Shown one piece after another: positions 22,533-33,438 of a DNA stretch of 64,000 nucleotides. The stretch comes from Escherichia phage LH01. The position numbers and the translations under genes are program-made. Each line of letters starts with the position of its first letter. Positions within the stretch are counted from its first letter, which is position 1. The stretch lies in sequence record PP434429; one strand, written 5' to 3'. The notes under the pieces are model-generated. The model had not been told where the DNA came from and did no database searches. It was given only the letters and a program-made list of their open reading frames with translations.

Positions 22533-22895
22533 TTAAAAGAATTTAAATTTTTTCTTGGTTCGTTCATTAAAAGCTTGTTGTACTTGCATTGTAACACATT
22601 TTTCAACGTGTGGTGCAAGTTCTGCTTTTCTGTCCTGGTCAAGAACTGCAAAGTCCATTACGATTTTACCATCAACCCAGTCTAGTTTTGTAATATAGAC
22701 TATATGATGGGAACCGTCTTCAAGTGTAATCAGAATCTCTTGAATGACATTTTCCATTGCTGAACGGACAATTTTAAGAGATTCATTAAACACTCGTTCT
22801 TTGCGAATGTCCTCCCCTTCCAAAGAAGGGGATTCATCAACGATTTCTAGATTTAAATCATCGAGATTATTCATCGAAATCTTCCATTTCGTCAA
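22533..22895 (-). CDS. hypothetical protein at the T4 gene 40 position
   Basis: 120-aa ORF between 41 and uvsX; synteny only. Confidence 0.4.
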   Translation of the reverse strand: MTKWKISMNNLDDLNLEIVDESPSLEGEDIRKERVFNESLKIVRSAMENVIQEILITLEDGSHHIVYITKLDWVDGKIVMDFAVLDQDRKAELAPHVEKCVTMQVQQAFNERTKKKFKFF

Positions 22896-24039
22896 GGTCG
22901 TTTTCTATATCTGCTGCAGACGGAGCATCAGAAGTTTTAACCGGAACTTTAGTTGTTGCTTTGCAATTAATAAGGTCGTTAACAGCGTCATCAACTTCTT
23001 TAATAGACGAGATGGCGCCTAGCTTATATTTCATTTCAATCGCATCACGGAAAGGTTTGTGTTTAAACAAAGGTCCCCAGAATTCTACACAATCAGTAGC
23101 TTTAGCACGCCACGATTTCTCTTCACGAATCATTTCACCTGTTTCTTCGTCAAGGAATTCGCGAGCATACCAACCGGCTTTAGGCTTAACAACAAATCCA
23201 ATTTCAGTTGCCATTTCTAACAAGCCACTGAATGGATCAATACCGCCATCAAAATTAACCGTGATTGGGAAAGTAGATTTCTCTTTAACTGTACGAGATT
23301 TTTCTGCTTTCAACGTGAAGTCATAACCGGTCAATTCTGTACCTTCTTTAACCTGACGTTTAGAGATAAAGAATACAGTGTTAGCAGAGTAAAGAATACC
23401 TGTACCACCACCCATAATCTCTTTAGGATATAGTCCGCCGATTTCCATTGCTGTATGGTTGATTGCAACACATGGAATATCTTTAATAGTCAGATAAGGA
23501 GTCACAATACGGAACAGAGATTTAAGTGCCTTAGCACGAGACATATCACCTACGACTTTCTCGTTCAATGCATCTTCGGTTTCTTTCTTAGATGCAGTAT
23601 TACCGATTGAATCGATAAAGATAATAACTTTATCACCGCGTTCAATAGCGTCAAGCTGATTAGTCATATCAACTTTAAGTTGTTCGACAGATTGAATCGG
23701 AGTATGAACTACACGGTCTAAATCAACACCCATTGAACGAAAATAAGATTCTGAAGCACCGAATTCTGAGTCATAAAACAAACAGATTGCATCTTTATAT
23801 TTCTTCATATACGCTGCAACCATAGTTAGCCCAAACAATGTTTTAAAATGTTTAGAAGGTGCAGCAAAAATAGTCAAGCCTGATTGCAATCCTGCATTCA
23901 GAGCACCACCTAGTGCGATATTCAACATCGGAATACGAGTAGGGACTTCATCACGATTATTAAACAGCTTAGACTTAGTCAAGTCTGCAGTCATTTTAGA
24001 AGTAGAAGCTTTAATCAGACGAGATTTTAAATCAGACAT
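22867..24039 (-). CDS. uvsX: UvsX recombinase (RecA-like)
   Basis: 390-aa ORF; RecA-fold P-loop region and acidic C-terminal tail. Confidence 0.9.
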   Translation of the reverse strand: MSDLKSRLIKASTSKMTADLTKSKLFNNRDEVPTRIPMLNIALGGALNAGLQSGLTIFAAPSKHFKTLFGLTMVAAYMKKYKDAICLFYDSEFGASESYFRSMGVDLDRVVHTPIQSVEQLKVDMTNQLDAIERGDKVIIFIDSIGNTASKKETEDALNEKVVGDMSRAKALKSLFRIVTPYLTIKDIPCVAINHTAMEIGGLYPKEIMGGGTGILYSANTVFFISKRQVKEGTELTGYDFTLKAEKSRTVKEKSTFPITVNFDGGIDPFSGLLEMATEIGFVVKPKAGWYAREFLDEETGEMIREEKSWRAKATDCVEFWGPLFKHKPFRDAIEMKYKLGAISSIKEVDDAVNDLINCKATTKVPVKTSDAPSAADIENDLDEMEDFDE

Positions 24040-24687: not shown

Positions 24688-25587
24688 TTATTCCTCGATT
24701 ACGACATCTTCGTATTTAGGTATATTATACGGTGAAGAAATTAAAGCATTAAAGTAGATGAACTCACCAAGACCTGGATGGAATACTTCTTCAGGATTTT
24801 CGAAATATTGAATTTTCGGACGTCCTTTAAGAATTTGATAGTACTCAGTTTTAGTTGGTTTAAAAATTCGAATCAGCGCTTCTTCAGGATACTTATTTCT
24901 GTCGAAGCTATTATTTGGATCGGTTATATAAAGCGGTTGACCTAATTGAATTGCACATTCAACCACTTGTTCAAAACGATAACATGGGTCACTAATTCGA
25001 AATGGATGAAAAATACCATCTAGATGAATAGGAGCCAAATCACCTACAAGACGCTGCATGATGGAAGGACGTATAACTTTCTGAGTTACGATAATCTTAT
25101 TACCATCTGCACCGGCGTTAACCAGCACTTCTTTTTGACGTTCATTCAACACAGTAGTTTGAAGTGAACGATTAACCGACAACATATCGGTTTTTAAGAA
25201 TTCGTCAATATAAAAACGTGGTTTATTAGGGTCTGCCGTGATATTGAAATTGAATTCTACATCAAAAGCGCCGTCATATCCAGTGATATCTGTTATTAGA
25301 AAATCACAATCATAATAAGCAATTAATGAATCAACCACAAATTCATTTTCAGACCAGAAATATTTACGAGTGTTATACGCGTTATCTTTATACCATAATG
25401 GAACAAACTTAAATTCTGGGAAAAGACGTTCACATTCTTTAATATCAGATGCATTACGTGGATATGTAATCACATCACCCGGATTAGCACGGTGCAAATG
25501 AAGTTGGAAGTTGCCATCCTTAAGGATAGCATACTGTCCAGTTTCATAAGACCGCATACTCAAGATAGGTACGCGGAAAATAGCCAT
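24688..25587 (-). CDS. hypothetical protein translationally coupled to gene 42 (candidate DNA-modification enzyme)
   Basis: 299-aa ORF whose ATG overlaps the gene 42 stop (TAATG); occupies the locus where T4 has beta-gt; no recognisable motif. Confidence 0.55.
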   Translation of the reverse strand: MAIFRVPILSMRSYETGQYAILKDGNFQLHLHRANPGDVITYPRNASDIKECERLFPEFKFVPLWYKDNAYNTRKYFWSENEFVVDSLIAYYDCDFLITDITGYDGAFDVEFNFNITADPNKPRFYIDEFLKTDMLSVNRSLQTTVLNERQKEVLVNAGADGNKIIVTQKVIRPSIMQRLVGDLAPIHLDGIFHPFRISDPCYRFEQVVECAIQLGQPLYITDPNNSFDRNKYPEEALIRIFKPTKTEYYQILKGRPKIQYFENPEEVFHPGLGEFIYFNALISSPYNIPKYEDVVIEE

Positions 25588-26303
25588 TAGTCAAGGAATC
25601 CTTTAACATAATCAAAATCACGTTCAAACACATGGGCACTTACCATGGTATGAGTATAATCACCAACTTCTACACCACATTCGTTAGCGATATAATGAAG
25701 TAATTTTCCTTGGAGATAAAAATCCAACTGCATAACAACAGCACAGTTCTGAGAACGCATATGACAGTGGGTATAAAGCTTACCATCACGAATATAATAA
25801 GTTACTGAGTCAGTACATGGATATTCAAGTGTTTCGTCCGAATCAAGCAAAGCCTGATCAGAACTTTCTAGAATTTGGAACACAACTCTTCGGGAGTTAG
25901 GCTTCTCTTTAAGTTCTTTTAGAAGAGCTGGTAATTGGGCCGCAATGCGAGGACCATAGAAAGTGTTGAAGTTCGCCGGCAAAACATCTGATTTTGGTTT
26001 AGAAATAAATTTAGCGACATTAGGATATGCCTTAAACGCTTCTTCTGCGTTGGTACCACCAGAAATCATAAACTTCCAGAAGTCTTCGGCATATTCATAA
26101 GAGATGCGGTTAATACGTGGGTCGGTCATTTTGAATGATGATGGAGTGTCAACAACTACTGTCATAGACCCAATTTCATTACAACGTCCAATACGAGAAT
26201 CAGTTACGAATTCGGGGTTTTCTAAAATTTCACGATTGACTGCTTTAAATGCGGTTTGAAAATCTGCGGCTTTGATATATTTCATTGTGTTATGTTTTCC
26301 CAT
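25587..26303 (-). CDS. 42: dCMP hydroxymethylase (thymidylate-synthase fold)
   Basis: 238-aa ORF; TS-like catalytic region EYPCTDS...HMRSQN with Asp where TS has Asn (QLDFY) by my alignment; position between uvsX and 43. Confidence 0.65.
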   Translation of the reverse strand: MGKHNTMKYIKAADFQTAFKAVNREILENPEFVTDSRIGRCNEIGSMTVVVDTPSSFKMTDPRINRISYEYAEDFWKFMISGGTNAEEAFKAYPNVAKFISKPKSDVLPANFNTFYGPRIAAQLPALLKELKEKPNSRRVVFQILESSDQALLDSDETLEYPCTDSVTYYIRDGKLYTHCHMRSQNCAVVMQLDFYLQGKLLHYIANECGVEVGDYTHTMVSAHVFERDFDYVKGFLD

Positions 26304-26345: not shown

Positions 26346-26585
26346 TTATTTGAATTTCTTGGCAATGTTGATATAACGTAAAGCTTCAGAATCTATACTT
26401 CCAAGAACACTATGAAGGAATGCATCAGTGTAGTATTCCAATTGAACAGGTTCTTTAATCACTTTAGCCGCTTTGGTTTCAAACAGGCCCATAAGGGCCT
26501 TTTTAAGAATTTGTTCGTTAGTGTTCAGTTTCATAGTCAAAATCTCTTTGTTAAGTTTATAATTAAAACTTTTTCTAGAAATCAT
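26346..26585 (-). CDS. hypothetical small protein
   Basis: 79-aa ORF from the track. Confidence 0.35.
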   Translation of the reverse strand: MISRKSFNYKLNKEILTMKLNTNEQILKKALMGLFETKAAKVIKEPVQLEYYTDAFLHSVLGSIDSEALRYINIAKKFK

Positions 26586-27751
26586 TCCGGGTACCTCAAA
26601 GCGTCATCAGAGTTAGTTATATCAATAATAGATATGGAGTTTTCTGCTAACCCGTTTTTAGATAATTGACGTTTATAATACCTTTCACAATATGTACACG
26701 TTGACCCACAGATTTCATTAGCACAATCAAAATCTGGATGTCTGAACCACCTTTTTTCTAAAAAGCCATCTAACAAAGAGGTTTCAATATTTACTGTATG
26801 TGAAAACTCAGTCTCATTTTCAAGAGTGAAAATAGTCTCTAAAGGCTTCCACAGTTCTAACAAATTACCTTCAAACTTTTCAGAAGCGTATGCTTCAAGA
26901 ACTTTCAAAATGTAGTCTGTGCTACCTGTACGTCCTGAAACTTTGAATTGAGTGATACCAATATCATTATAAAGTTTCAAATCTTGAGGACGAACAAAAC
27001 GAGTTCTCAACCAGTTAAATGGGTCTGTATCACGAGCTTTAATGCAGTGTTGCATTGGATATCCATTTAAGGATTTAGCATCATCAGCTGTAACATCAGT
27101 ACTATGGAAAATATAGCAAGAGTCACGATAACTGCAATGTGTTGTATACCCTTTACCAGCATTAGAACAGAACTCATTTACAAGAACTTCAAATATTATA
27201 TTGTTCTTATTGCAAAACTCTGCTGCACGCTTCAGGAAAGAAACTGAACGGTTCTTATGAATTCCACAGCAGACCTTTTTGATATTGTATTGGTCATGTA
27301 AGTATTTTATTTGAGTTACAGCATCGACATGTAGAATTGTTGAAACTTCAATCTCAATGTCTTTATTGACTTCACGAACAATTTCCATAACAACAGGGTT
27401 AGCGATAGTAATACGCCATACGCCTATTGACCAAAGATACTGAACATAATCCTGAATAGCTTTCTTCTTCCACTCGACTAGTTCTCTTTTTGAACCAGGA
27501 TTTATCGTGTTGAGTGTATAGTTAAAGCAAATACCTAATTCGTTACAACGTTTAACGTAATCTTCTAACATCTTTTTGTCAACGTCAGGAAGCCTAAAAT
27601 CAGGTCTGGCTGCTACAAAAGCCATTTCTCTTGTAGAGCCGTATACTTCGTTTATCAAGCTGTTAGGATAAGTTTTATTGAGCTCTACGATTTTATCAAG
27701 AAGAGCTAAATCAAAATTCGTTCCGATTTTAAAAGTATTCATTTTTTGCAT
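26582..27751 (-). CDS. Cys-rich protein of unknown function (candidate modification enzyme)
   Basis: 389-aa ORF; C-terminal CGSTCTYC (CxxxCxxC) plus further conserved-looking Cys; no confident family call. Confidence 0.55.
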   Translation of the reverse strand: MQKMNTFKIGTNFDLALLDKIVELNKTYPNSLINEVYGSTREMAFVAARPDFRLPDVDKKMLEDYVKRCNELGICFNYTLNTINPGSKRELVEWKKKAIQDYVQYLWSIGVWRITIANPVVMEIVREVNKDIEIEVSTILHVDAVTQIKYLHDQYNIKKVCCGIHKNRSVSFLKRAAEFCNKNNIIFEVLVNEFCSNAGKGYTTHCSYRDSCYIFHSTDVTADDAKSLNGYPMQHCIKARDTDPFNWLRTRFVRPQDLKLYNDIGITQFKVSGRTGSTDYILKVLEAYASEKFEGNLLELWKPLETIFTLENETEFSHTVNIETSLLDGFLEKRWFRHPDFDCANEICGSTCTYCERYYKRQLSKNGLAENSISIIDITNSDDALRYPE

Positions 27752-27797
27752 CTCGCGTTAATTGATGCGATGGTTTTTGCAGGTCTTACTTAAATTA

Positions 27798-28184
27798 TTA
27801 TAGATTCGGTTTATATGATTTAAATGTTTCGAATTCGCCTTTATTCATAAGAGCTTTGAATTCGTCAGGACGCATAGCTTTGTCGTCGATAATCCAATCA
27901 TATACTGGTTTATGTGTTAGCAAATTATGGTACTTCAAGCCAATGTTTGCCAAGTTCTGAATCAGACTTGGGAGAATGTCAATTGCTATACGACCAGGAC
28001 CTACTGACTTCATACCACGAGCAGTGTAAAGCGTTATGGTATGCCCTGCATCATACAGGGCATTAATGGCAGACACCATTTCGACGTCTGGTTTGAAGTT
28101 CACGTAATCACGATTGTTATTCCACTCTGTTATACAATCATCGACATCAAAACAAAGATTAAGCATGTTTTCTACACGGTGCAT
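27798..28184 (-). CDS. HAD-superfamily phosphatase (small, KdsC-like size)
   Basis: start at ATG for MHRVENMLNLCFDVDDCIT (HAD motif I DxDx[T/C]); later LYTARG and DWIIDDKA motifs; ATG overlaps the upstream stop. Confidence 0.6.
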   Translation of the reverse strand: MHRVENMLNLCFDVDDCITEWNNNRDYVNFKPDVEMVSAINALYDAGHTITLYTARGMKSVGPGRIAIDILPSLIQNLANIGLKYHNLLTHKPVYDWIIDDKAMRPDEFKALMNKGEFETFKSYKPNL

Positions 28185-29869
28185 TAGATTCGTTCCCATT
28201 GATGAGTGATATCGCCACCGATTGGACGATAGGAAACACCAGTTTCTTTATCAGTTAGTACCCATTTACCAGGATTTTTTGTAATCAGAGTAGCCGTTAC
28301 AGGTTCTGCTACGTCATAACTAATAGAGCCGTCTTGAAGTACACGGCCCATGTTGCGTAATTGCTTAGTCAGAAGTTCCATACCTTTATAATATGCGGCT
28401 ACCGCTTTAAGTGGATTATTCTTGAAATAACCACCTAATGCAATCCAGATAATTGCCACCGCCAAATGATGATACTCGTTAAACGAACTCATCTTTCCAT
28501 ATTTGTAAATTAATGGATTGATGTTAATAGTCACATTACAAGTTGTTTCATCAATAGTAAACTGTCCCCAGGTCGGATTAGCATTGAATTCATCATAACC
28601 TGAAACGGCATAAAGCACTTTAGCTTCATCATACAATTTTGGCCCGTAAATCTTGGTTTCGCCAAAATATCCACGAGGGTCGATAAACTTGACTTCGCCG
28701 TTATCAGTAATCATAGTATTACTGAAGTTCGGGTCACCATGAATAACAGAGTACTGTCCCTGAGAACGATTATGATAACGAATAAGGTGTTCTAAAGCTT
28801 GTTTCAGCATTGGCTTCAGACGTCCAATCTTAGTGTAGTTCACATGTGTGATTTTACCAAATGAATCAATCAATGGTTGAATACTTTCACAACGATCAAT
28901 AACTTTCGTATAGAATTCTTTAGTGAAATCACGACGAACAGTTTCAGGACTTACAAAATACGTGTCTGTGCTGAATTTCAGTGCATCTAAAATTGCATCA
29001 ACAATTTGTGGACGAGCAAGACTTGATTTGGATTTAATATATTCAAATGCCGGCTTACCTTTAATGCGTTCCATTTCAAAGTTATTTTCATTAACAGAAA
29101 CTAACTGAGGAACTGAATCTGATTTCACTTTCAAATACCACGAAATCTCATCTTTCTGAAGAGCTCGTCCCTGTTCGGTTAATGCGAATTTAGTTACAGT
29201 TTCTTCACCAATTTCAACTGCATTAAAACTACGATTAAGTTCACGAACTTCATGAGCTTTTTCAAGTTTAGGCATATCACCTAAATCAATTAGATTCATA
29301 AGCTCTGATTTATTGAATGCGCCGCTGTAAAGGAATTCTACGAAATCACGTCCTTTGCAGTATTCATGAATTTCCTCATCGGTAGAACCCATATAGAATT
29401 CCCAGTCTTTGAACTGATAAATTCCTACAACATTACCACCTGTTGAACCTACGTTAGTGATATTTTCACCGTCGAAATTATACCGACATTCGTCACCCTT
29501 AACATAGATTGCGTTAACATTCCAAGACCATGAACCAAAATCAGGAATAATATCACACCAGTTAACAATTACATTATGGCCATCTAAATCTTTGTGTAAT
29601 TTAGCAAGAGCATAAGCAGAACCATACGCTTCATCAACTGTACGAATAGTCACATTGAACCCTTCTTGCTCACAATAAGCTCGAACAGTTTCAGCAAATT
29701 TTGAATGAACTACTACAATAATTTCATCTGCGCCAAGGTCAGAATAAATTGTATACAAATTGCTCAGAATAGTGTCTTGTTTATAGTTAACAAGCACCTT
29801 AGGAATATGATGCGTTATTGGATACAAACGAGTTGCCAGTCCAGCACCAAGAATAACAGCTTTTTTCAT
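28184..29869 (-). CDS. bifunctional sugar-1-phosphate nucleotidyltransferase / sugar kinase (APH-ChoK-like)
   Basis: 561-aa ORF; N-terminus ILGAGLATRLYPIT...PKVLV (NTP-transferase signature); C-terminus VIHGDPNFSNTMI...FIDPRGYFG (Brenner HGD-N and DFG-like motifs of APH/choline-kinase fold). Confidence 0.75.
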   Translation of the reverse strand: MKKAVILGAGLATRLYPITHHIPKVLVNYKQDTILSNLYTIYSDLGADEIIVVVHSKFAETVRAYCEQEGFNVTIRTVDEAYGSAYALAKLHKDLDGHNVIVNWCDIIPDFGSWSWNVNAIYVKGDECRYNFDGENITNVGSTGGNVVGIYQFKDWEFYMGSTDEEIHEYCKGRDFVEFLYSGAFNKSELMNLIDLGDMPKLEKAHEVRELNRSFNAVEIGEETVTKFALTEQGRALQKDEISWYLKVKSDSVPQLVSVNENNFEMERIKGKPAFEYIKSKSSLARPQIVDAILDALKFSTDTYFVSPETVRRDFTKEFYTKVIDRCESIQPLIDSFGKITHVNYTKIGRLKPMLKQALEHLIRYHNRSQGQYSVIHGDPNFSNTMITDNGEVKFIDPRGYFGETKIYGPKLYDEAKVLYAVSGYDEFNANPTWGQFTIDETTCNVTININPLIYKYGKMSSFNEYHHLAVAIIWIALGGYFKNNPLKAVAAYYKGMELLTKQLRNMGRVLQDGSISYDVAEPVTATLITKNPGKWVLTDKETGVSYRPIGGDITHQWERI

Positions 29870-29910
29870 GTTGTGGTCCTCATTGGTAAGTAGGAGTATT
29901 GTACACTATT

Positions 29911-30054
29911 CTAGTTAAAGCATTCATACTTTGCTTGTAGTCCAATCATAGTCCATCCGATTATAAGAGTCGGAATCATTACTGGAGCCGTTAAGCTCCA
30001 GTAGATAGTCATGACAAGCATCAATAGTAAAAGTCCTATTGTTATTGCTTTCAT
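29911..30054 (-). CDS. small membrane protein
   Basis: 47-aa ORF below the track threshold (MKAITIGLLLLMLVMTIYW...); ATG overlaps the SIS gene stop (ATGA). Confidence 0.35.
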   Translation of the reverse strand: MKAITIGLLLLMLVMTIYWSLTAPVMIPTLIIGWTMIGLQAKYECFN

Positions 30055-30686
30055 TGCTCGCCTCGTAACATGGCACCTAGTGCACCGCCTGGATGGAACT
30101 TAAGGAAATCATTAGAGGTAAATCCACGTTCAGACGAAAGGTTGATAGCAAAAGTATCGATAAGCGCTAACAATAATGTAGTGGACATAGTCGGAGCCAG
30201 AGAATTCTCATCAACCTCTACTGCGATGCCTGTACAGAACGTATAATCAAAAAGAGCTTCGTATTCTTGTGGAATGTCTGGGTTACAATGCAACAGAATC
30301 TGTTTGACGTTCGGACGAATCATTTTAAGATGCTTAGCCACGCCTATCATTTCTTCAGTTTTACCAGAACGACTAATATGAATCAACACATCATTAGGCG
30401 CAATGAATCCTGCATCACCGTGAGAATAATGCCCAGTGTTCAAGTACATACTCGGGATACCGAGTGAAGCAAATGTCTCAGAAGCTTTAGTTGCAATATT
30501 AGCATTCTTACCAACACCTGTAATAATTACTCGGCTTTCATAATTACTAAGTCCAGGGCGTCGAAGAGTTTCTAGAATAGCATTATAACGAGCAGGGTTT
30601 TGACTAATTACTTTGGCCATAGCGGCCAAAGAAGAAGCTTGTTTTATGATTGCGTCAATAGCGATATTAATAGGAGTAGTTTTCAT
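30051..30686 (-). CDS. SIS-domain sugar-phosphate isomerase, KdsD/GutQ-type (single domain)
   Basis: 211-aa ORF; ITGVGKNANIATKA...HGDAG...ISRSGKTEE...APTMSTT...HPGGALG matches the arabinose-5-phosphate isomerase SIS pattern; no CBS domains. Confidence 0.75.
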   Translation of the reverse strand: MKTTPINIAIDAIIKQASSLAAMAKVISQNPARYNAILETLRRPGLSNYESRVIITGVGKNANIATKASETFASLGIPSMYLNTGHYSHGDAGFIAPNDVLIHISRSGKTEEMIGVAKHLKMIRPNVKQILLHCNPDIPQEYEALFDYTFCTGIAVEVDENSLAPTMSTTLLLALIDTFAINLSSERGFTSNDFLKFHPGGALGAMLRGEQ

Positions 30687-30726
30687 ATTTCTCTCATTTA
30701 ATTAGTTTACCGTCCATGGCATTATA

Positions 30727-33438
30727 TCAAAAATCGAACATATCGAAGAGAGATGCTTTCTTCTCGTAATCGAGTTTCGCTGCTGATGTGAATCCTTCAA
30801 GTGGTTTAATAAATGTCTTCTCAAGGAGAACAGTGTAGTCCATCCAATGAAGTACGTCGTCTTTAATTAAATCTGTGATTTCAGTACCAGAAGGCCATGC
30901 GATACATTTATCACCGAATGGGTTTCCTTCACGTAAAGGCAGAACATATACTTTTTCACCTTCTACAACTTGTGGAGCATCAATATTACCTTTGATAGCT
31001 CGGTTATATGTCAGAATTCCACGAATATGGAACGGACATTTAGGACCAGGGAATCCACCAACGTCATATTTAGCAATGTTATTCGCAGAAGATACCGACG
31101 CGATGCTAATATAATTCAATTGACGGAATTCTTTTTCAAACTCTTTAAAATATTCTTGTAATGATTCTTCACCTTCTTGAAGCATACGGCGAATACATTC
31201 TTTAAGAGCTTTCTGTACTGCTTTAGGGGTCGAAGATTTCTGTGTTTCGAGACCCATGATTTTGAGTTTAGGCTCAGCGTATCTGGTTCCTTCCATATCC
31301 CACACGTTTAATGCATAACGTTTCTTACCAGTCCAGAATCCGCCAATACCTTTAGAACCGAGTGGAGGACCAGCGATAGCTTCTCGGTCCATGAACATTA
31401 AGTGTTGTTTATTGTTCATGTATTCACACATTTCACGGAAACCTCTATCAATAGCCGGTTCCATACGTTCACGAGCGAACTTATCTAAGAAGTCTACCCA
31501 ATGGTTGGTATCACGGAATTTAGATTCACCAACCTTATCAATAATTTTATCTGCAGATACGTAAATAGAGTCTGTATCACCATAAAGAACGAAAGCTTCA
31601 CCTTCTGTACCACAAACTTCGTTCAGATATTCATTAACTTTACGTTCAATCCACTGTAAAGCCATTTGCCCGAATGTTGTGATTGCAGTAGCATTACGCA
31701 AATCATAATAACGGAACCAAACGTTGCCAAGTGCACCATAAAGTGAGTTGATAAGCAATTTACGGTTAATTTGTGCAGTCATACCTGCAACTTCAGTACG
31801 TTGAGCTCTAAACAACATTTCATTAAGAGATTTAGCAGACAACTTTTTAATCTTTTCTTTAATCTCATCGCTGAAGTCGAAACGATAATCAACATCTAAT
31901 GGTTCGTCAACAGAAAGATTAGGATTATGCAATGCCTCTTTAATTATTTCACCATTACGTTGAGCAGCAAGCATATAACCTTTATGTTCTTTACGTTGAT
32001 TAAAGACTTTAGTGATTTCGGTTGGAACTACACCATCACGGTCTTTATAATACATCATGCCGTTAGGAGAACAACTGTACACATCTGAAGGACGTTCAGC
32101 GATTGCGTTAATATAATCATGCAGTGGAGCTACTTTAAACGTTCCTGCTATTGTTTCCGGGCTAATATTCACTTGGCGAATAATACTTGGATACAGGGAT
32201 GTAAGGTCGAAACTCATTACATATTTGTATCGATTTGGAATAGGTTCCTTAACAAAAGCACCGGGATAAGGTTGAACCGGGTGAGAACGACCTTGTGGAA
32301 TCACCTTGCTCTGCTCTTTAAGGCTATTAAAAATAATAGCATCCCATGTTTTAATTGGGCTAAACACAGATTGAATCTGTATCTTAGCATAATAACCCAT
32401 GTCCAAACTCAAGTTGATGAACTGACGCTTAGCATCAATTTGCAATACACGATACACGTCGATAATGTTATAAGAAATATACCGTTGGTGATTGCTTTCA
32501 CGAAGCTTAGAAATAGGGCCGTCATATTTCAGTTTACCAACGTTCAATTCAAATTCTGAAATGTAATCCAGAGAATACGACGGTTGATTGGTAAAAGAGA
32601 ATTTTTTGTAAAGGTCGATATAATCAAGAACAGAGATACCGAACAATGTAATGATTTCACGAGAACCATACATGTTTTCGATAACTTTAACACGAGTTTT
32701 ACGATGTGGTGATAAACGTTTCGCAGTAGATTCGCCAAAAATATTCTTGATTCGGTTATACACATATGGAATATCAAATGACTCAACGTTCCATCCAGTC
32801 AAAATGACAGGAGTTTTCTGTTGCCAGAAGTTGAGATATTCCATCAACAATTCTTTTTCGTTATCGAACGGCATATAAATGATTTTATCGATAATTTCGG
32901 ATGGAACTTCATCACCACCTTGTTCTTGAAGCTTAGCCGCAATTTCGATAGACCATTCTTCTACATTACCGTATGGAGAATTCAAAAGGTCAAATACATA
33001 AAACCTGTCATCAATTGAGTCATAATGGGTGATAGCATCAATCGGATGTTTTGCTTGTGACGGCTCAGGGAACCCGTCCGGAGATGTTACTTCGATGTCG
33101 AAGTTAGCCACACGAATTTTTGTATGGTCGTATTTGATTTCATAGTTATAAGTGTCAGACAAATACGCCAATTTGAAATCGTCCATGCCAAGTGCTTCAA
33201 GTCCGATATCTTCCATGCGTTTAATCCATTGGGAGGCATCACGCATATTAGCGAACAACTTACGAGTGCACGGCTTACCGTAGATATCGAAATATTTCGT
33301 AGCCTGACTTTCTGGACAATGAGCAAACAGTGATGGTTTATATTCTACTTCACGAGTACGTTCACGGCCATTAGAATCGATGTAACGTTCAAAAATTGAA
33401 TCACCAATCTGTTCAACCGTTAGGTAAAATTCTTTCAT
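30727..33438 (-). CDS. 43: DNA polymerase (family B) with 3'-5' exonuclease
   Basis: 903-aa ORF; exo motifs (FDIEV, YNIIDV), pol motifs DLTSLYPSII, KxxxNSLYG, YGDTDS; sequence reads like RB69 gp43 from memory. Confidence 0.95.
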   Translation of the reverse strand: MKEFYLTVEQIGDSIFERYIDSNGRERTREVEYKPSLFAHCPESQATKYFDIYGKPCTRKLFANMRDASQWIKRMEDIGLEALGMDDFKLAYLSDTYNYEIKYDHTKIRVANFDIEVTSPDGFPEPSQAKHPIDAITHYDSIDDRFYVFDLLNSPYGNVEEWSIEIAAKLQEQGGDEVPSEIIDKIIYMPFDNEKELLMEYLNFWQQKTPVILTGWNVESFDIPYVYNRIKNIFGESTAKRLSPHRKTRVKVIENMYGSREIITLFGISVLDYIDLYKKFSFTNQPSYSLDYISEFELNVGKLKYDGPISKLRESNHQRYISYNIIDVYRVLQIDAKRQFINLSLDMGYYAKIQIQSVFSPIKTWDAIIFNSLKEQSKVIPQGRSHPVQPYPGAFVKEPIPNRYKYVMSFDLTSLYPSIIRQVNISPETIAGTFKVAPLHDYINAIAERPSDVYSCSPNGMMYYKDRDGVVPTEITKVFNQRKEHKGYMLAAQRNGEIIKEALHNPNLSVDEPLDVDYRFDFSDEIKEKIKKLSAKSLNEMLFRAQRTEVAGMTAQINRKLLINSLYGALGNVWFRYYDLRNATAITTFGQMALQWIERKVNEYLNEVCGTEGEAFVLYGDTDSIYVSADKIIDKVGESKFRDTNHWVDFLDKFARERMEPAIDRGFREMCEYMNNKQHLMFMDREAIAGPPLGSKGIGGFWTGKKRYALNVWDMEGTRYAEPKLKIMGLETQKSSTPKAVQKALKECIRRMLQEGEESLQEYFKEFEKEFRQLNYISIASVSSANNIAKYDVGGFPGPKCPFHIRGILTYNRAIKGNIDAPQVVEGEKVYVLPLREGNPFGDKCIAWPSGTEITDLIKDDVLHWMDYTVLLEKTFIKPLEGFTSAAKLDYEKKASLFDMFDF

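Follow-up and report, generated by a model that had tools for sequence, protein, structure and literature searches.

A putative D-arabinose-5-phosphate 1-kinase/UDP-D-arabinofuranose pyrophosphorylase of the AfhE family in the DNA arabinosylation cluster of Escherichia phage LH01

Introduction

In the pathways to GDP-heptose (GmhA-HddA-GmhB-HddC) and ADP-heptose (HldE together with GmhA and GmhB), an SIS isomerase is followed by an anomeric kinase that forms a 1,n-bisphosphate, a HAD phosphatase and a nucleotidyltransferase (NTase). In FKP of Bacteroides (L-fucokinase/GDP-fucose pyrophosphorylase) and AFKP80 of Leishmania (D-arabino-1-kinase/GDP-D-Arap pyrophosphorylase), the latter of which activates D-arabinose, one polypeptide begins with an NTase and ends with an anomeric kinase. 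Here, we analyze a gene of Escherichia phage LH01 that encodes an NTase and a kinase domain in one chain, located in a 64,000-nucleotide stretch of record PP434429 (hereafter, the window), and compare it with these systems and with AfhE, an enzyme described from related coliphages.

In phage RB69, ORF053c and ORF052c form one gene of 561 residues, their separation in the record being a sequencing error; the joined product was expressed as a band of ~64 kDa, and it was proposed to act with the SIS-domain protein ORF055c in making UDP-arabinose (Thomas et al., 2018, PMC6024577). The same protein, gp52:53, was modelled as an NTase N-terminal domain and a kinase C-terminal domain (Lee et al., 2026, NAR, PMC13326640). 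Citing He et al. (2026), that paper reports AfhE of phage HY126 as a characterized bifunctional D-arabinose-5-phosphate kinase/UDP-D-arabinose pyrophosphorylase, in which the kinase converts D-arabinose-5-phosphate (Ara5P) into arabinose-1,5-bisphosphate, AfhF (RB69 gp51), a Mg-dependent phosphatase acting on this bisphosphate, strips the 5-phosphate, and the NTase domain then yields UDP-arabinose (PMC13326640). The DNA of RB69 bears D-arabinofuranose (D-Araf) on 5-hydroxydeoxycytidine (5-hydroxy-dC), the furanose form having been established by nuclear magnetic resonance (NMR), and glycosyltransferases (GTs) of related phages accept UDP-Araf in vitro (PMC13326640).

Results

An AfhE orthologue in a Mosigvirus genome

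We conclude, with a probability of about 0.85, that the LH01 protein is the Mosigvirus AfhE orthologue, a D-arabinose-5-phosphate 1-kinase/UDP-D-arabinofuranose pyrophosphorylase. Architecture, folds, catalytic residues, orthology and a conserved gene neighborhood are the basis for this that is provided by our own analysis. Judged from sequence, the protein belongs to the AfhE family by its orthology, its two-domain architecture and its genomic context. The enzyme is already known, having been predicted in 2018 and reported as characterized in 2026 for an orthologue of 96% identity, and our finding therefore re-derives rather than extends published knowledge.

The genome is that of a Mosigvirus, an RB69-like T-even phage, and the DNA of the region is 98-99% identical to that of many Mosigvirus (RB69/JS09-like) coliphages. 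The protein is 100% identical in phages JN02 and LF82-3, and 99% identical to RB69 p053 (aa 1-218) and p052 (aa 219-561), which together are ORF53_52c, or gp52:53. HY126 AfhE (XAN60479.1) shares 96.4% identity with it over 100% of its length. Both HY126 AfhE and RB69 gp52:53 are of equal length to the LH01 protein, contain the same two domains and are flanked by the same genes (isomerase, AfhF phosphatase, U32-like, ThyA-like and GT), and the 20 substitutions and 1-aa indel that separate HY126 AfhE from the LH01 protein have no known functional consequence. Only three of the 20 differences lie outside aa 181-265 (85 residues, in the kinase N-lobe), a pattern that in the aligned sequences looks more like a patch introduced by recombination than like evenly spread drift. 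RB69 carries the LH01-type sequence in this segment.

The sequence-only reading, made before this analysis, had placed the gene at 28184-29869, which is exactly one open reading frame (ORF); it gave no strand, which is minus. A Shine-Dalgarno sequence, GAGGA, lies 8 nt 5' of the ATG. Homologues are present in 373 phage records, with at least 99% identity in 131 of these, and PHROG 4098 ('unknown function') matches the protein end to end (E = 9e-295). Altogether, the match evidence is far beyond chance. Public labels for the protein are inconsistent or wrong, and include 'hypothetical', 'GlmU' and 'mannose-1-phosphate guanyltransferase'.

Domain architecture and catalytic residues

The Pfam family NTP_transferase (PF00483) matches aa 3-99 (E = 8.5e-10; 39.1 bits, cutoff 21.2), an alignment that at the sequence level reaches only the first ~100 residues, and in NCBIfam the N-terminus matches many sugar-1-phosphate NTases, including HddC and MurU, all below threshold. 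Scores in the kinase region are likewise below the Pfam cutoffs for APH (PF01636; 14.4 bits, cutoff 23.2), Fructosamin_kin (17.1, cutoff 22.4), EcKL (16.2, cutoff 22) and RIO1, and the assignment of the kinase domain consequently rests on its motifs and predicted fold. A precomputed PF01636 match is present in some of the homologues.

Conservation was judged in an alignment of 49 homologues with 29-75% identity. Invariant residues are G10, R14, K24 and D106 in the NTase domain, and K227, E241, G378, D379, N384, D397, R399 and G400 in the kinase domain, where H377 is conserved in at least 90%. The loop H377-G-D379-PNFS-N384 corresponds to the Brenner motif H-x-D-x4-N, and D397, the metal-binding Asp, lies in D397-P-R-G400. 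Together with the beta3 Lys (K227) and the alphaC Glu (E241) this is the full catalytic set of choline-kinase/APH enzymes, and the domain is not a pseudokinase.

An AlphaFold2 model built from the same alignment has a mean predicted local distance difference test score (pLDDT) of 94.7 and a predicted template modelling score of 0.91. As a whole domain, the N-terminal part agrees with the sugar-1-phosphate NTase (RmlA/GlmU/LicC) fold, and the C-terminal part has a bilobal kinase fold that is closer to small-molecule kinases than to protein kinases; the C-terminal tail (aa 508-561) is modelled at lower confidence (pLDDT 82-91) with short strands. No solved structure spanning both domains was found by PDB profile search or by Foldseek (TMq <= 0.31). 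Among solved structures, HddC, the heptose-1-phosphate guanylyltransferase, is nearest in sequence to the NTase domain (E = 7.6e-14).

An NTase at the N-terminus and a kinase of APH/choline-kinase fold at the C-terminus of one chain had been claimed in the sequence-only reading, and Pfam, alignment, model and fold comparison all support this. The motifs it quoted are present (ILGAGLATRLYPIT at aa 6-19, VIHGDPNFSN at aa 375-384 and FIDPRGYFG at aa 395-403). Its NTase signature, G-x-G-x-R-L...K, applies in part: G10, R14 and K24 are invariant, but a strict G-x-G-x-R is absent, the actual sequence being A-G-L-A-T-R-L, that is, the LicC/HddC-type loop AGLGTRL in which Ala takes the place of the second Gly across the whole family and which is followed by PK24. 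A protein kinase or pseudokinase at the C-terminus, the outcome it had named as speaking against it, is not what we find, as the fold is that of a small-molecule kinase and the catalytic residues are intact.

Proposed pathway

The best-supported reading is that the two domains catalyze non-consecutive steps, the second and the fourth, of a four-step route. Host ribulose-5-phosphate would be converted to D-arabinose-5-phosphate by the SIS isomerase encoded upstream (step 1), after which the C-terminal kinase domain would use ATP to phosphorylate the anomeric C1-OH, yielding arabinofuranose-1,5-bisphosphate (step 2). The translationally coupled HAD phosphatase would take off the 5-phosphate (step 3), and the N-terminal NTase domain would convert the resulting Araf-1-phosphate and UTP into UDP-Araf and pyrophosphate (step 4). 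Phage GTs would then transfer arabinose to 5-hydroxycytosine of the phage DNA (step 5), protecting it from host nucleases.

As AfhE is reported to act on Ara5P, and as the AfhF orthologue and the isomerase adjoin the gene, the input of the pathway would be an intermediate of the pentose phosphate pathway rather than a salvaged sugar. If C1 is phosphorylated before the phosphate on O5 has been removed, the furanose ring would be locked and, we infer, a furanosyl donor would result without a pyranose-furanose mutase. Such a lock through the 5-phosphate would explain how an Araf donor can be made without a mutase, and is consistent with the D-Araf found on RB69 DNA (PMC13326640).

In its logic, the pathway most closely resembles that of HldE with GmhA and GmhB, as HldE also fuses a kinase to an NTase that act in non-consecutive steps. 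We considered membership of the HldE family and rejected it, as there is no signal of a PfkB/ribokinase-type kinase or of a cytidylyltransferase-like (CTP_transf_like) NTase in the protein. The GDP-heptose pathway, to which the closest solved NTase relative HddC belongs, has the same order of isomerase, kinase, phosphatase and NTase. AmgK and MurU, which salvage MurNAc, share the pair of folds; in contrast to the LH01 protein, for which a sugar 5-phosphate substrate and an intervening phosphatase are reported, they are separate proteins that act consecutively on a free sugar without an isomerase or phosphatase. FKP and AFKP80 differ in their GHMP-fold kinase, free pyranose substrate and GDP-sugar product, and the FKP type was rejected because no GHMP match was obtained in Pfam or in the fold comparison. 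LicA and LicC, a choline kinase and a CTP:phosphocholine cytidylyltransferase, act on another class of substrate, show 12-21% identity and occur in an unrelated genomic context.

Distant homologues in phages and in giant-virus-like contigs

Similar gene sets surround more distant homologues. In the Dhakavirus IME08, a homologue with 43% identity adjoins genes for an orf051-like phosphatase, a ThyA-like protein and a GT, and the upstream orf44 gave no SIS match. A metagenomic contig of 350 kb from an unrelated jumbo phage (L017:4135-10689) encodes an SIS isomerase, a GT2, an AfhE-like protein (35% identity), a HAD hydrolase, a ThyA homologue and a nuclease similar to T4 EndoIV; genes for dCMP deaminase, NAMPT and NAD kinase are also found near this module. 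In Tenacibaculum phage PTm5 (L005:6001-8939), the homologue (27% identity) is followed first by a histidine phosphatase (His_Phos_1, E = 9.3e-23) and next by a homologue of ThyA; His_Phos_1 stands in place of the HAD protein, and the phosphatase step is thus kept through non-orthologous replacement. No recognizable isomerase, phosphatase or ThyA-like gene lies near the homologue of Vibrio phage 6E35-1b (28% identity, 435 aa), whose neighbors are QueC-like, radical SAM and NAMPT genes.

Homologues with 30-35% identity are single chains of 890-955 aa in which HAD, SIS, NTase and kinase domains follow one another in this order (P0084, P0089, P0118 and P0091). Their SIS domain is of the KpsF/KdsD type, as in the isomerase of the window. 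Taken together, the distant neighborhoods and these fusions link the LH01 protein in function with an isomerase of sugar phosphates and with a phosphatase, neither of which a pure free-sugar salvage would need.

We examined the loci L006-L009 (P0084), L012-L013 (P0089) and L010-L011 (P0118). The contigs bear hallmarks of giant viruses, namely Rpb2, Rpb10, MutS-I/III/V+HNH, a PolB of 1553 aa, UCH, RING and a Ski2-like helicase, and GT2, epimerase or sulfotransferase genes lie near some of the fusions. One contig encodes two paralogues, and one fusion (P0091, eukprot) derives from the transcriptome of a eukaryote. We tentatively suggest, at somewhat less than even odds, that eukaryotic giant viruses hold the whole route from ribulose-5-phosphate to an NDP-D-arabinofuranose in one protein. 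No description of arabinose fusions in giant viruses was found in the searchable literature, although other papers may cover them; for TetV-1, an 'arabinose 5-phosphate isomerase', the annotation of TetV_403, is mentioned in passing (PMC12126595).

A further protein, P0106 (L015:5412-9361), has a C-terminal cupin domain, similar to mannose-6-phosphate isomerase, behind the NTase-kinase pair. Next to its gene are those for an epimerase/dehydratase-HAD fusion and two more epimerases, and the contig also encodes PIF1, UvrD-like, RING and FtsH-like proteins. Such a kinase/NTase core may be reused with another isomerase, and hence for another sugar.

Alternative explanations

Several points weigh against the assignment as a D-arabinose-5-phosphate 1-kinase/UDP-D-arabinofuranose pyrophosphorylase. 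What its substrates are, in which order the steps run and that UTP is used are taken from the literature at second hand. The nucleotide specificity of the NTase cannot be read from the sequence, and gene content alone fits a pathway in which the order of kinase and phosphatase is reversed as well as the one we propose. Table 1 of Lee et al. gives that other order (gp51: Ara5P to Ara; C-terminal domain: Ara to Ara1P), contradicting the text of the same paper (PMC13326640). No Pfam kinase family scored above its cutoff, the matches at aa ~345-405 all falling short. The differences from HY126 AfhE cluster at aa 181-265, leaving the invariant residues untouched. Finally, the HAD domain of the four-domain fusions is of the beta-phosphoglucomutase type, a different subfamily from the capless, TIGR01689-like phage protein; an alignment of the two proved meaningless and was discarded, and the fusions therefore back the phosphatase step but not orthology of the phosphatase.

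In the reversed order, the HAD phosphatase would release free D-arabinose from Ara5P, the kinase would phosphorylate it at C1 and the NTase would act next, the two domains being consecutive as in AmgK/MurU, NahK/GlmU and FKP. We regard this as unlikely, although it is the order in Table 1 of PMC13326640 and requires the same four genes, so that the neighborhoods and fusions fit it equally well. According to the text of PMC13326640, experiments on AfhE and AfhF, the former 96% identical to the LH01 protein, place the kinase on Ara5P and the phosphatase on arabinose-1,5-bisphosphate. Moreover, we infer that free D-arabinose would be mainly pyranose, whereas the DNA adduct is a furanose by NMR (PMC13326640), and both pathways to heptose nucleotides, which have an equivalent gene set, pass via a bisphosphate. 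Another substrate or nucleotide, by a LicA/LicC-like phosphocholine/CDP-choline route or as a GDP- or CDP-pentose, appears highly improbable to us. The nearest NTase by sequence, HddC, does use GTP, and specificity is not legible in the sequence of the LH01 protein itself; however, identity to such matches is just 9-22%, the gene is flanked by an arabinose-5-phosphate isomerase within a DNA arabinosylation cluster, RB69-type DNA holds arabinose and not choline (PMC6024577; PMC13326640), and it is UDP-Araf that GTs of related phages use in vitro (PMC13326640).

The assignment as an AfhE-type Ara5P kinase and UDP-Araf pyrophosphorylase thus retains the architecture, folds, sugar and purpose given in the sequence-only reading, and departs from it on the free sugar, the consecutive steps and the placing of everything in one chain. 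That arabinose is the sugar, and that the phage makes its own NDP-sugar donor, which E. coli does not supply, are both borne out by the literature (PMC6024577; PMC13326640). By contrast, C1 phosphorylation of a free sugar followed by its direct activation in the same chain, on the model of AmgK/MurU, conflicts with the text of PMC13326640, in which AfhE is reported to act on Ara5P and a separate phosphatase to intervene.

The arabinosylation cluster of LH01

The cluster lies entirely on the minus strand, between the genes for DNA polymerase (30727..33438) and uvsX (22867..24039), and its gene order equals that of RB69 and HY126 (Table 1).

Table 1. The AfhE-type protein of phage LH01, its domains, and the neighboring genes of the cluster; positions are those of the window.
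Feature	Coordinates	Strand	Remarks
AfhE-type kinase/nucleotidyltransferase gene	28184..29869	minus	one ATG-initiated ORF, 561 aa + stop
N-terminal sugar-1-phosphate nucleotidyltransferase domain, aa ~1-208	29246..29869	minus	AGLATRL aa 9-15, K24, D106
Choline-kinase/APH-fold small-molecule kinase domain, aa ~209-507	28349..29245	minus	K227, E241, H377-G-D379-x4-N384, D397-P-R-G400
C-terminal tail, 54 aa (aa 508-561)	28187..28348	minus	after the kinase domain; secondary structure and per-block pLDDT of the model
KpsF/KdsD-type arabinose-5-phosphate isomerase, SIS domain only, 211 aa, RB69 gp55	30051..30686	minus	upstream of the AfhE-type gene
Small ORF, 47 aa, strongly hydrophobic	29911..30054	minus	MKAITIGLLLLMLVMTIYWSLTAPVMIPTLIIGWTMIGLQAKYECFN; annotated in HY126; RB69p054 region
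Small capless HAD-type phosphatase, 128 aa, orthologue of RB69 gp51/HY126 AfhF	27798..28184	minus	HAD motif I F-D-V-D-D-C-I-T
Peptidase_U32-family protein	26582..27751	minus	Pfam E = 7e-11; weak UbiU match in NCBIfam
79-aa ORF, between the U32-family and ThyA-homologue genes		minus	
Thymidylate-synthase (ThyA) homologue, RB69 gp48 orthologue by position	25587..26303	minus	Pfam Thymidylat_synt E = 2.3e-15; RB69 synteny
299-aa protein at the position of RB69 gp46:47 (RB69p046/047)	24688..25587	minus	PHROG 3891, without assigned function
Thymidylate-kinase-like protein		minus	after the 299-aa protein

The isomerase is recognized by Pfam SIS (E = 1.5e-10), by NCBIfam kpsF (2.3e-32) and KdsD (1.2e-30), and by PHROG 5670 (E = 2.8e-116). 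Between it and the AfhE-type gene lies the 47-aa ORF, which shares 4 nt with the isomerase gene at its stop codon; to judge from its sequence, it probably encodes a small membrane protein, and probably stands outside the arabinose pathway. The phosphatase gene is directly downstream, its ATG overlapping the TAA of the AfhE-type gene (TAATG). Its product is 100% identical to HY126 AfhF (XAN60478.1) and matches PDB 9iqw_A (E = 1.8e-87) and 1xpj (E = 4.9e-10) and the capsule biosynthesis phosphatase family TIGR01689 of NCBIfam (E = 3.8e-13). PHROG 1238 and many of the RefSeq/GenBank records call it 'phosphoheptose isomerase', which looks like a mis-annotation that has propagated. A scan of 27500-30900 for promoters and terminators yielded 10 promoter-like sites where 11.8 were expected, and therefore says nothing on expression.

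For the U32-family protein no sequence match was found in the PDB. The U32 family includes O2-independent hydroxylases, such as RlhA (ho5C in rRNA), TrhP and UbiU/V, and by analogy with these the protein might offer an anaerobic route to 5-hydroxy-dC. It has been labelled only as a 'sugar or heterocycle reductase' (Lee et al., 2026, PMC13326640), and IME08 lacks its gene in the corresponding cluster. The ThyA homologue of the RB69 gp48 type is reported as a 5-hydroxy-dCMP synthase, making the acceptor hydroxyl for arabinosylation (PMC13326640). The 299-aa protein has no match in Pfam; its RB69 counterpart, gp46:47, is the putative first DNA arabinosyltransferase and putative consumer of UDP-Araf, a function that is taken from PMC13326640 only.

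Implications

Three outcomes of this work are useful: the corrected logic of the pathway, with a bisphosphate intermediate and domains that act non-consecutively, the mislabelled database entries, and the lead on giant-virus fusions. If the latter is true, the AfhE family reaches well past the modification of phage DNA, the product in giant viruses presumably serving for virion glycans. In Mosigvirus, the enzyme would supply the activated sugar with which 5-hydroxycytosine in the phage DNA is arabinosylated, a hypermodification that blocks most restriction enzymes and shapes how sensitive the phage is to defence systems, type IV restriction among them. The virus would in this way need no more than three small genes to turn a central metabolite into a nucleotide sugar that is foreign to its host.

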